Below, one piece after another: positions 30,001 through 33,000 of a DNA stretch of 64,000 bases (positions are counted from its first letter, which is position 1; the number at the start of each line of letters is the position of its first letter). The position numbers were made by a program. Location: assembly GCF_017348835.2 (NCBI RefSeq), contig NZ_CP072312.1; one strand, given 5' to 3'. This DNA comes from Escherichia coli (GTDB lineage Bacteria > Pseudomonadota > Gammaproteobacteria > Enterobacterales > Enterobacteriaceae).

Positions 30001-33000
30001 TCATCTGATAACTGGATGAACCATCATGTGAATTAAGCAGGATAATTTCAGGAACTTCCTGCCCGTTAATATGCCCTTCCCTGCGAAGACGTAACATATG
30101 TTTACTGTATTCGCGACGTCCCAAATCACGAACCCGACTCTGACAGGCAAAGAATGGCTGGAAACCTTCATCACGTAACTTATTGATGATATTGTTGGAA
30201 TATACGTATAACGTTCACTCCGGGACTCATGTTTATCACCGGAAAATACCGAAGGCACGAACTGCATTAATTCATCATCCGTTAAAGGACGTTCACGGCG
30301 GATGGAATTATACCGACCAAAACGGGAAGCTAATCGCATAACAGCTACTCCTTTATGAAAGAATAAATTTAATAAAAAACTTTTCCGCTTAATATCATCC
30401 CTCCCGGTCACTATTAACAAGATTGCAACAATCAGGAGAAATATTCATCACATCTGGTCAGCAGATCGCCCGGATATCGAGGCCGGCACGCTTAATCTGA
30501 CGCAGGAACTGTTTGAAGTGATCGGCTTCCGCAATGTTGATATGGCGGAACTGCGTATCCACACCCCGGCTGAGCGCGTAGCTATAGCTGAAGGCCATCT
30601 TTTCCGGGTGGCTTTTGCGATATTTTTTCAGCTCAGTCAGGCTGCTGAATTCCAGGACGTCCCACTCTTCCCCGGTGTTTTTTTCTTCCCGGCAACAAGA
30701 AGCGTGTACGACGCGGTGTTAACGTGGATATTTCGGGTACTCATCCTGCTTTCTCCTCTCTCTGGTTTTCAGCCCCCATCATCTTTTGAGTTTCGGGAGC
30801 CGCGGTTTTGACGTTTTGCGGGGATCTGCCTTTTGTTCCCTCCGGTATTCACCATCACCTTTTTGAGAACCTTCGCCGCAAGGGGCATCACTGCCACGGC
30901 CGGAAACGACTGTCCGGGGGCAGACCGCAAAAGTTTTTGCCTGCTTTTGGGCAAAAAGTTTTGCGGGATGTACATTTCACCCTGGACTGGCGGAGACGTC
31001 TTTGCCCCCGGCGACAGGGGCTTAAACAGGTGAATGGCACCGGACACAACAACGGGCAGGGACCCGCCGCAACGACGGAGAGCGCGTGCGCGAAACGGCG
31101 TTGCCCCTTACATCCCGGCGGCCTTTTGCCGGAATGCCAGGAGCGCAGGCCACGGCGCGACAGAGGCGGTGCGACCGGAACGGTCGCTGCAAGCCAGGGT
31201 TTCGCGTCAGGGATGGAAGCCCGCCAGGGCGGAGACAGCTTCGCTGGCTCCGTTCACGACAGCCCGCCCCGCCAGGGGGACGCCCGGAAAAGCCATAAAC
31301 AGGAGAGGAACGGAAAGAAGAGGAAGAGGAAAAAGAAGAAGAACAATAACAAGCACGGTAACCATAGAAAAATAACATCAGAAAAAAACATTCCGGACAC
31401 ATCACAAACAGGAAGGGTAACGGGCGACGCGTCAGCATGGCCCGCTTCCCTTCCGGCAGGCGTCAGCCTGCCAGGGGTTTTCGCGCGGGCTGACAGGCGG
31501 CCTCCACCGCCTGCCCTGTATCACCTGTTTCTGCTGCCCTGAAGGATATAGTGACCACCGAGGAAAACCGCCTGCTGATTCGCCACAAAATCGCAGATTT
31601 CATCAACAATCTGCGCGGTGGTGAGCGGTTTCTGCCCCATATCACGACGCCGCACATTAATCACGGCCCTGTAATTACGCAGAATTTCGCGGGTTTCCGT
31701 GTTGATATTCATGACATGTGCTCCCCGTCCAGCGCCTGTAACACAACGTCCATTGCTTCGCGTTCTTCCCTGACGAATGCGTCACCGTCGCCCCCGTTCT
31801 CACTCCCGACGGCATACAGGCGCTTCATTTCACTGCCTGCCAGCGCCATCACTTTTTCAAGCATCACTGCCGGGACTGTCACCTGACGGCTGGCACGCTT
31901 TTCTTCCATCAGTTCACGGACAACGTCGTGAACAATGCTGACATCCGCACCATGCTCAAAAGCATCGTCCAGCCGTTGCATGACGGTTTCCAGCTCATCG
32001 TCTGTCAGACTCCAGTCCCGGGCTATGTGACGCACATCCCCACGGGTCAGCACCACGGCAAAAACGCATTCACTGTCCGGCACGTCTGTATCCAGCACTT
32101 CGCGGATAATTTCTTTAACAGTACAGTACATGTTCTCGTCTCCTTTACAGGGGCGGCATTGCCGCCCCGTCCGTTAATCAGTCCAGTGCCGCGTAAATCG
32201 CGTTACATTCGGGATGAACTTCGATGTGGCTCCACGACTGCGCATCACGCATCCGGTACAGGTGTGTCAGTCCCGCATCACCGCTGTCGTGGTACAGCCA
32301 CAACTGGCGGTTAATCACAAGGGAAGTCAGAATGATGCCTGCGGCATCGGCGCTGACCGTGCGGTCAAACCAGTTTGCACCGTTAACCAGATGAAAACGG
32401 TCACCGTCCGGCAGGCGGATGAAGTGCCAGAAGCCGCCTTCATATTCCGGCATCATTTGTTTCGCCAGCACGTACACAGACGCTTCGGCATACAGAAAAC
32501 CCAGGCCAAACAGGTAAGGCAGAAAGGAGAGACGGTCGCACTCTTCAACATTCAGAGTGACAGGTTTCGCATATTGCATGATGTTTTCCTCCGTTGTTCA
32601 CATATTCCGCGACACCGGGCGGTGCCGTGCCTCCATAAAAGCCGGGCGATAAGGCGGGGATGCAGGGGCGCAAGGGAAGCCGCAGCCTGACGCACACGGC
32701 TGGCGGGAGTTGGAGGGTGAGACCGCGAAACCTGAGCGGGTGAACGACCGGAAAATCACGGCAGACGGGAAGGAGGGACCGGGTGACCGCAGCGGCGAAG
32801 CGTACCCTTGCATCCCCGCCAGCCCGGCTAAGATGGAGGCACGGCACAGCCCGCACACAACACGGCGGCCACATAACTGAAAACCCACAAGGCCATGCCC
32901 CGCATGGCCGGGTAAAGCGGAGCCGGTGGCGACTTCCTTTGAGCTCTGTCCGGGGACCGGCAGGAAAAAGGCGGGGATTTACCCCGCCAACGTCATCATT

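Follow-up and report, generated by a model that had tools for sequence, protein, structure and literature searches.

A GC-rich, repeat-dense block lies between positions 30800 and 31520 of a 64,000-nt stretch of Escherichia coli DNA (hereafter the window; contig NZ_CP072312.1 of assembly GCF_017348835.2), in the leading region of an IncF plasmid, which raises the question of what function such a block could serve. An earlier note, made by a reader who had the sequence alone, proposed a single-strand promoter or single-strand initiation (ssi) element like those of F, which should fold into a stable hairpin, resemble known Frpo/ssi sequences and encode no protein. The composition described there is indeed unusual, as 30800–31520 contains 60.2% GC (63.3% in the sub-block 30800–31295) versus 48.2% across the whole window, and the motifs TTTTGC and GCAAAA occur four times and twice in the block, when 0.48 and 0.33 copies, respectively, are predicted from the window-wide rate. 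We also recovered the purine tract that had been pointed out, 31296–31352 being 89% purine and including an uninterrupted 32-nt purine run (31312–31343) that is the longest in the 64-kb window.

Comparison with F Frpo/ssi sequences revealed a clear similarity. The segment 30773–31110 (+) aligns end to end by BLAST, with 92.6% identity over all 351 nt, with F ssiD (D90178.1), a class 1 ssDNA promoter and priming signal which is the same element as Frpo or Frpo1 (ssp1a in a 2026 preprint) and appears among the known Frpo/ssi elements of Supplementary file 4 in Samuel et al. (2024, PMC11541004), a study in which 13,089 Frpo homologues are catalogued. Over 30765–30987, the window is also 91.9% identical to the Frpo2 part of the functional Frpo-acrIIA4 construct from the same study (PMC11541004), Frpo2 (ssp1b; Couturier et al. 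2023) being the F repeat upstream of ssb. Self-BLAST of 30700–31600 (word size 9) and BLAST of the published Frpo/ssi sequences found no second class 1 copy in the window, and none of the nine Rfam matches obtained in the window at gathering score falls within 30700–31600. Primosome-type ssi sites (PriA/phiX174-type or G4 primase-type) were set aside for the block, given that the matches to F ssiE lie outside it, at 27780–27893 and 29327–29409.

More distant relatives preserve the centre of the element. The ssi1–3 (Frpo1–3) sequences of ColIb-P9 are reportedly the class 1 ssDNA promoters of IncI1, according to work attributed to Bates in 1999 and Nasim in 2004. Identity to these is 79–82% and limited to the 80-nt core (30910–30989), the lower stem sequences being unrelated; what is shared is the core GTCCGGGGG...A/T palindrome...CATyT...CCCTGGAC, a 3' terminal GCGCAGG(C/T)CACGGCGCGACAG and helices kept by compensatory changes. 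We consider it very likely that 30773–31165 is a class 1 ssDNA promoter and priming signal of the Frpo/ssiD family, and that this copy is a hybrid of Frpo1 and Frpo2 produced by recombination between repeats. The element itself is already known and is textbook F biology, so the proposal was correct but ordinary, none of the outcomes that the note gave as refuting it having appeared, and it confirms that a single-strand promoter can be detected by a sequence-only reader from its repeat architecture.

The orientation of the element can be read from the transfer origin. An exact 17-nt match to the F-type oriT nic sequence (GTGGGGTGT/GGTGCTTT) lies at 27176–27192 on the + strand, and we take the nick to fall within it at 27184/27185, as would be expected of F TraI. 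This location makes the + strand the transferred (T) strand, which enters toward higher coordinates; traM (26479–26862, −) is on the opposite side of nic from the leading region. The Frpo element is located 3.6 kb from nic, downstream on the transferred strand, and the gene order is that of F (oriT, orf169, ssiE, ygeB, ygeA, Frpo1). From the base of the hairpin at 30790 to the start of ygeA at 30745 there are 45 nt, and ygeB follows; since both genes are on the − strand, their transcription uses the T strand as template. The window copy resembles F Frpo1 in its position, upstream of ygeA-ygeB and separating these genes from the remainder of the leading region, and in its strand, as well as in the tip, core helix and bulge of its hairpin.

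Folding of the T strand as DNA gave an extended imperfect hairpin of 110 bp (30790–31096, +), the tip of which is an A/T-rich palindrome (30925–30966) with a near-perfect inverted repeat of 17 nt (30925–30941/30950–30966). Whether placed by homology (30773) or by the hairpin base (30790), the left edge of the element is slightly before the start originally noted. The + strand of 30760–31170 reached −94.3 kcal/mol versus −77.0 ± 4.7 kcal/mol for shuffled sequences (z = −3.65), with none of the 100 shuffles as stable. The two inverted repeats quoted in the earlier note, 30814–30830 and 30919–30932, are complementary as claimed (TTTTGCGGGGATCTGCC versus the reverse complement TTTTGCGGTCTGCC), but they have other partners in the minimum-energy fold, where 30919–30932 is paired near the tip and 30814–30830 with about 31056–31075. 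Both strands fold alike (−93.4 kcal/mol for the − strand), therefore folding alone cannot identify the active strand, which was assigned from the nic site.

The hairpin is conserved as a structure. In the core helix, formed by GTCCGGGG (30912–30919) and CCCTGGAC (30980–30987), six of the eight pairs are unchanged in all nine homologues. Compensatory double changes were found in 15 of 48 consensus pairs among homologues from F, ColIb-P9, Serratia and metagenomes (for example, column 137/256 is GC in four sequences, CG in four and UA in one), a count drawn from nine sequences, several of them closely related. We also scanned the T strand from 26 to 42 kb with the threshold of Wen et al. (2025), −75 kcal/mol or less in 300-nt windows. 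Exactly three loci were picked, namely the Frpo block, a locus upstream of klcA and a locus upstream of the methylase, which matches the three promoter classes of Wen et al. (2025); F-homologous class 2 and class 3 promoter sequences (ssp2, ssp3) are present at 32580–32995 and 35170–35560. These other classes share with the Frpo block the leading region, the strand and the large-hairpin logic, but have zero sequence similarity to it.

A protein-coding role for the block, for instance through a 68-aa ORF at 30769–30975 (−) or a 244-aa ORF on the + strand, would account for the presence of the ORFs and for existing annotation, in which the 68-aa product is a hypothetical protein (PGAP) or, in some GenBank records, a "single-stranded DNA-binding protein". 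However, none of five ORFs (244, 138, 113, 92 and 48 aa) has a Pfam match, SSB family included, and their products are of low complexity, either Arg/Pro/Gly-rich, as the earlier note had remarked, or poly-Phe. Indels of 1 nt and 10 nt separate homologous copies within the ORF, what is conserved is a hairpin maintained by compensatory changes, and the genuine ssb gene of F is not matched anywhere in the window. We regard a coding function as scarcely credible, and the GenBank "SSB" label in the block looks spurious. The 48-aa hydrophobic ORF (31254–31400, −), which we considered as a small toxin, is a translation of the pyrimidine tract with a GTG start and no family match.

The intergenic location directly upstream of ygeA would also suit an ordinary duplex-DNA promoter followed by the 5' UTR of ygeA, with the inverted repeats acting as an operator or terminator, and the hairpins at 31411–31515 do resemble the end of an upstream operon. 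Such an arrangement is nevertheless very unlikely, as a duplex consensus scan found no canonical sigma-70 −35/−10 pair on either strand of 30400–31800, a hairpin of 110 bp is far above operator or terminator size, and, in F, deleting the homologous elements eliminates expression specifically in the period before the DNA becomes double-stranded (PMC9849209).

For a promoter formed within the hairpin, the best candidate boxes are TGGGCA (30948–30953) and TACATT (30971–30976), separated by 17 nt, which were the top hexamer pair in a weighted scan and would occupy the 3' arm (30948–30976, +), on the non-template side. The candidate −10 is inside a bulge (30972–30979) that is unpaired in the folds of both the window and F Frpo2, and the pair is weakly conserved among other homologues. 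A search for conserved boxes across nine homologues yielded a single pair, TTGACG-18-TTTGTT (30808), which the window shares with one metagenome copy and the two copies of F. We did not adopt it, because ColIb-P9 lacks these boxes and because their 3'-arm pairing partner is missing in the Samuel construct, where they would be unpaired. We decided against TGGAC(A/T), which lies in the conserved CCCTGGAC, as a −35 because its spacing to any −10-like hexamer differs between Frpo1 and Frpo2.

The F Frpo/ssiD element was reportedly characterised in vitro by Masai and Arai in 1997. Its in vivo characterisation dates from 2023–2025 and includes the finding that early expression of ygeA and ssb depends on Frpo1 and Frpo2 (Couturier et al. 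2023, PMC9849209). Only for the homologues in F and ColIb-P9 is it known that host RNA polymerase transcribes the element in an ssDNA-specific, SSB-stimulated manner and that the RNA is used as primer; activity of the 30773–31165 copy is a prediction from that literature. By analogy with the mechanism published for these two plasmids, the + strand would enter the recipient as ssDNA from the nick at 27184/27185 and this segment would fold into the long imperfect hairpin, which may mimic duplex promoter DNA. Host sigma-70 RNA polymerase would then initiate inside the hairpin and transcribe toward lower coordinates with the incoming strand as template, giving an RNA that could act as messenger for ygeA and ygeB, the leading genes that lie downstream in this plasmid, and could also prime synthesis of the complementary strand. 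Once the DNA is double-stranded, the hairpin would be gone and the promoter switched off.

One may ask whether, in this plasmid, the element would be mainly a priming site for complementary-strand synthesis and less a promoter for gene expression. ssiD first entered the literature as a single-strand initiation sequence (Nomura 1991, as cited in PMC11541004), ssp1/Frpo transcripts have been reported to prime conversion in vivo (bioRxiv 10.64898/2026.01.09.698686), and the ORFs downstream of the window copy are unable to yield full-length proteins. We think that such a shift is unlikely and, as one transcript would serve both roles, it would differ from a combined promoter and priming signal in emphasis, the mechanism being the same.

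It is doubtful that the function of this promoter and priming signal is under selection in the plasmid, given the 10-nt loss in the hairpin, the frameshifts in ygeA and ygeB and the IS interruptions of traJ and ssiE. The deletion, at 30997/30998 (+; GGTTGTGGCT in F Frpo1), leaves GCCACGGCCG of the 5' arm without its pairing partner, so that one 10-bp helix is lost, and every one of the eight other class 1 copies in the alignment retains the deleted nucleotides. At −93.5 kcal/mol, the window hairpin is about 20 kcal/mol weaker than those of F Frpo1 (−113.2 kcal/mol) and F Frpo2 (−108.7 kcal/mol). A junction query at ≥99% identity gave, as an upper estimate, 108 carriers of the deletion in 3497 PLSDB records.

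The surroundings of the element, which comprise the leading region and the transfer system, are visibly decaying. In ygeA (ORF95; 30458–30745, −), the first gene downstream of the promoter, a run of seven T at 30678–30684 (+) replaces the eight found in F, and tblastn recovers the gene in two frames; the run has eight T in five other plasmids and seven in plasmid D1-B. The second gene, ygeB (ORF273, DUF932; 29522–30342, −), is frameshifted relative to F by a 4-nt deletion near 30195 and likewise appears in two frames. An IS3-family element cuts traJ short after about 45 codons, and an IS4-family insertion divides ssiE. Together with the loss of ssb, psiB and hok, such damage could mean that the element is a decaying relic, a Frpo homologue which no longer works as a promoter or no longer matters, and we take this possibility seriously without favouring it. 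However, the fold remains below the −75 kcal/mol cut-off by which active ssDNA promoters were found, and the tip, core helix and bulge of the hairpin are intact. Moreover, the functional construct of Samuel et al. carries a Frpo2 segment whose own 3' arm is cut short, at the equivalent of about 31021, pO55 shares the deletion and has an intact ygeA, and priming needs no downstream genes.

The window copy is a chimera of the two F repeats. Diagnostic sites are Frpo1-type in 30700–31055 and Frpo2-type in 31061–31600, a clean switch which places the crossover in the interval 31056–31060 (+), and the whole of 31061–31800, with the GA tract, hairpins, orf63 and DUF1380, corresponds to the Frpo2 upstream flank. 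The copy is unlike Frpo1 from 31061 onwards, in addition to its missing helix, weaker fold and frameshifted downstream genes, and unlike Frpo2 in that the tip of its hairpin and the greater part of the two arms are Frpo1-type and the Frpo2-driven ssb operon is absent. tblastn with protein queries found no match to ssb, yfjA, yfjB, psiB or hok anywhere in the window, and the F ssb-to-hok DNA segment, by which psiA was covered as DNA only, has no match in the window either.

A hybrid repeat and a missing interval are the outcome expected from recombination between two Frpo repeats, the possibility of which was predicted by Couturier et al. (2023, PMC9849209). Homologous recombination between the direct repeats Frpo1 and Frpo2 would delete the F interval containing ssb, yfjA, yfjB, psiB, psiA and hok/sok, and the chimeric copy would mark the loss of this SOS-inhibition, SSB and hok/sok module. 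The hok/sok system had been expected to protect the deleted interval.

Of at least 5000 PLSDB records, only 80 have ygeA next to orf63, and at least two different crossover points exist, as pO55 and plasmid D1-B share the switch of the window and RHB43 differs. On balance, we lean towards the view that recombination between Frpo1 and Frpo2 recurs in natural IncF plasmids, deleting the ssb-psiB-psiA-hok/sok module and leaving one hybrid promoter, the window being one such scar. If this is true, the Frpo repeats would be built-in recombination sites which resize the leading region, and the resulting plasmids would be natural knockouts of the Frpo2 operon, of which the approximately 80 plasmids with the fused architecture could be used as natural controls for the contribution of that operon. 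A comparable case is R1pO111 of pO111-CRL115 (Venturini et al. 2013, PMC3817090), also a single two-part hybrid Frpo repeat with ssb, psiB, psiA and ardA missing. In that plasmid, however, the leading region is IncI-type and the authors read an insertion site and no deletion scar, whereas the window is IncF and combines Frpo1 with Frpo2. The backbones on which the fused architecture was seen are pO103- and pO55-type, 120–158-kb IncFIB/FII, E. albertii and S. dysenteriae.

What this analysis adds to the known element is modest and consists of the anatomy of the block. The earlier note had presented 30800–31520 as one block; a promoter/ssi element does occupy approximately 30773–31165, but this is about half of the noted block and the remainder comprises several distinct features, the GA tract and the hairpins of 31400–31520 being flank of a different nature. 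The segment 31165–31520 is the counterpart of the F sequence upstream of Frpo2, made up of conserved small hairpins, the variable GA tract and a hairpin-rich stretch that closes the klcA-DUF1380-orf63 operon. Beyond ssiD, the conserved class 1 repeat unit extends over 31110–31295 (+), an extension common to F Frpo1 and Frpo2, and 31295 is as far as the window can be aligned to both F copies. Its small hairpins are at 31097–31150 and, in the fold, at about 31170–31186 (GCGACCGGAACGGTCGC); 31140–31163 is matched by the 3' end of ColIb Frpo3 and 31166–31241 by the Salmonella candidate Frpo*6.

The GA-rich tract that follows (31296–31352, +) is an imperfect (AAG)n repeat of variable length, with TRF periods of 3 and 15, and is pyrimidine-rich on the mRNA-sense strand. 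It is found in the Frpo2 upstream flank only, where the F version is 18 nt longer. Further along, RNA folding of the − strand placed three hairpins immediately 3' of the stop codon of the 63-aa gene (31411–31515), at 31492–31515, 31455–31472 and 31411–31454, the last of which is followed by a U-rich stretch; the region folds at −93.6 kcal/mol (z = −3.16). A simple terminator scan did not flag 31411–31515, and the hairpins could possibly represent a terminator or the 3' UTR of the klcA-DUF1380-orf63 operon. Upstream of its Frpo2, F has an almost identical sequence in this region.

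The block at 30800–31520, which the earlier note had proposed from sequence alone as a single-strand promoter or ssi element, contains an element of the already known Frpo/ssiD kind, the class 1 single-stranded DNA promoter and priming signal of the F plasmid. Reference Frpo/ssi sequences were taken from Supplementary file 4 of Samuel et al. 2024 (PMC11541004), and comparison with them bore the proposal out: all 351 nt of F ssiD (D90178.1; the same as Frpo, now Frpo1) aligned to positions 30773–31110 with 92.6% identity, the Frpo2 part of the functional Frpo-acrIIA4 construct of that study was 91.9% identical to the element, and the three copies of ColIb-P9 matched its core at 79–82%. 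No further class 1 copy was found in the 64-kb window. The full-length match and an extended hairpin both support the single-strand reading.

In terms of setting, the window is essentially identical to pO103 of E. coli O103:H2 (NC_013354.1), an IncF plasmid, with 100% identity over the query, and carries FinP with the traJ 5' UTR (26286–26397, Rfam) and traM (26479–26862, −). A single copy of the F nic sequence GTGGGGTGTGGTGCTTT is present in the window, on the + strand at 27176–27192. F TraI nicks after GTGGGGTGT, with the 5' end leading into the recipient; with nic on the + strand, this strand is therefore the transferred (T) strand, entering toward rising coordinates. The gene order after nic (SLT/orf169, ssiE, ygeB, ygeA, then the block) is identical to that of F. 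Apart from orf169, the genes in this series are on the − strand, and the incoming + strand is therefore their template. The SLT/orf169 transglycosylase ORF (27183–27785, +), whose listed start coincides with the nic site, is the only gene of this stretch in the T strand's own sense, an orientation shared with F.

Folding of the + strand at 30760–31170 gave −94.3 kcal/mol (z = −3.65), with a single predicted hairpin of 110 pairs spanning 30790–31096. Conservation is nearly complete in its core helix, GTCCGGGG/CCCTGGAC, where six of the eight pairs are unchanged across nine homologues, and compensatory double changes were seen at fifteen other hairpin pairs. The pairing of 30814–30830 with 30919–30932 singled out in the earlier note is a genuine complementarity which the predicted structure does not use; a near-perfect 17-nt palindrome lies at 30925–30966.

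According to the literature, such a folded incoming single strand would mimic a duplex promoter, within which RNA polymerase would initiate; the transcript would express leading genes ahead of duplex conversion and could also prime complementary-strand synthesis, after which conversion to duplex would silence the promoter. A consensus scan of the region returned no −35/−10 pair. The best candidate boxes, whose placement is not confident, are TGGGCA (30948–30953) and TACATT (30971–30976), 17 nt apart in the 3' arm, and would place the transcription start opposite about 30916. The candidate −10 falls mostly in a bulge (30972–30979) that is unpaired in the folds of both the window copy and F Frpo2.

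Following Wen et al. 2025, we also screened the T strand from 26 to 42 kb by folding segments of 300 nt with DNA parameters and a cutoff of ≤ −75 kcal/mol, which returned exactly three loci, all on the + strand: 30800–31209 upstream of ygeA, in the block itself (95.7% identity to the F Frpo1-ygeA region), 32560–32919 upstream of klcA (gene at 32178–32579, −; the wider locus, to 32995, has 96.4% identity to the F sequence ahead of klcA/yfgB) and 35140–35549 upstream of a DNA methylase gene (34486–35169, −; the wider locus, to 35560, has 98.2% identity to its F counterpart). These correspond to the published ssDNA promoter classes 1, 2 and 3, respectively. The klcA-upstream hairpin is strong (−87 kcal/mol per 300 nt) and shares 87.5% identity with 'Frpo' 4', a candidate from Samuel et al. 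(PMC11541004); class 2 promoters (ssp2) are reported to stall complementary-strand synthesis. At −95 kcal/mol per 300 nt, the methylase-upstream hairpin is the strongest of the three.

In an otherwise known element, the single feature worth retaining is that it reads as a recombination scar. When the window was aligned jointly with both F copies, diagnostic sites were Frpo1-type at nearly all positions in 30700–31055 and Frpo2-type in 31061–31600, and the window's copy is thus a Frpo1/Frpo2 chimera. Whereas in F klcA-DUF1380-orf63 flanks Frpo2 and ygeA flanks Frpo1, with some 5.4 kb between the copies, here both flank one single element. Neither ssb, yfjA, yfjB, psiB and hok nor the F ssb-to-hok DNA segment, which includes psiA (whose protein was not itself a query), had a match anywhere in the window. 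Couturier et al. 2023 (PMC9849209) pointed out that recombination between the two repeats, which are 92% identical, could delete the intervening interval, and Venturini et al. 2013 (PMC3817090) described a comparable hybrid repeat in an IncI-type region. The fused architecture was present in 80 PLSDB records, stemming from several backbones, among at least 5000 matching records. The crossover lies at 31055–31061 in the window plasmid, pO55 and D1-B, and at about 30997–31000 in RHB43; the differing points therefore indicate at least two separate events.

The window copy of Frpo is also weakened, as judged by predicted folding energies. It lacks 10 nt (GGTTGTGGCT) found in all eight other aligned class 1 copies, and the helix between GGTTGTGGCT and GCCACGGCCG is absent; because of this loss, its hairpin is predicted at −93.5 kcal/mol, compared with −113.2 for F Frpo1 and −108.7 for F Frpo2. 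A junction query at ≥99% identity gave an upper estimate of 108 carriers of this deletion among 3497 records.

The surroundings of the element are decaying. Both ygeA (30458–30745, −) and ygeB (29522–30342, −) are frameshifted, the former by a 1-nt deletion leaving seven A instead of eight in a homopolymer run, the latter by a 4-nt deletion near 30195. Deletion of ygeA in F strongly reduced conjugation (Couturier 2023, PMC9849209); pO55 and four more of the plasmids with the fused architecture carry an intact copy. The second single-strand initiation sequence of F, ssiE, which adjoins oriT, is split into halves at 27780–27893 and 29327–29409 (ssiE positions 1–115 and 108–190) by an IS4-family element (transposase 27906–29243, −; Pfam Nterm_IS4, DDE_Tnp_1), and the 8-nt overlap of the halves is consistent with a target-site duplication. 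An IS3-family element (~24850–26160; ALIL pseudoknot at 25182–25298) cuts off traJ (start about 26293), the gene for the transfer-operon activator, some 45 codons in. The transfer region looks rearranged, given this interruption, the four ALIL (IS3 frameshift) elements in the window and the distant position of the traI and traG signals, at 53.8 and 62.3 kb.

The compositional features that had drawn attention to the block held up: its GC content is 60%, compared with 48% across the window, there are six occurrences of TTTTGC/GCAAAA when the expected number is below one, and 31312–31343 is the longest purine run of the window (32 nt uninterrupted). A Pfam search of the block's ORFs gave no matches. 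Many GenBank records label one of these, a 68-aa ORF (30769–30975, −), as 'single-stranded DNA-binding protein', an identity we rejected for lack of SSB similarity; as the ORF also lies wholly within the 5' arm of the hairpin, the label looks like a propagated mis-annotation.

Beyond the hairpin, 31110–31295 still belongs to the repeat unit, being common to both F copies and distant homologues, and bears small hairpins. It is followed by an (AAG)n-like tract (31296–31352), which varies in length between plasmids, F having 18 nt more. The mRNA-sense strand here reads as a pyrimidine tract with little G, lying downstream of a hairpin; around 31312–31343 it might be a Rho-loading site. Directly after the orf63 stop, the same strand has three hairpins (31411–31515), possibly the terminator of the orf63 operon, since the last of them precedes a U-rich run.
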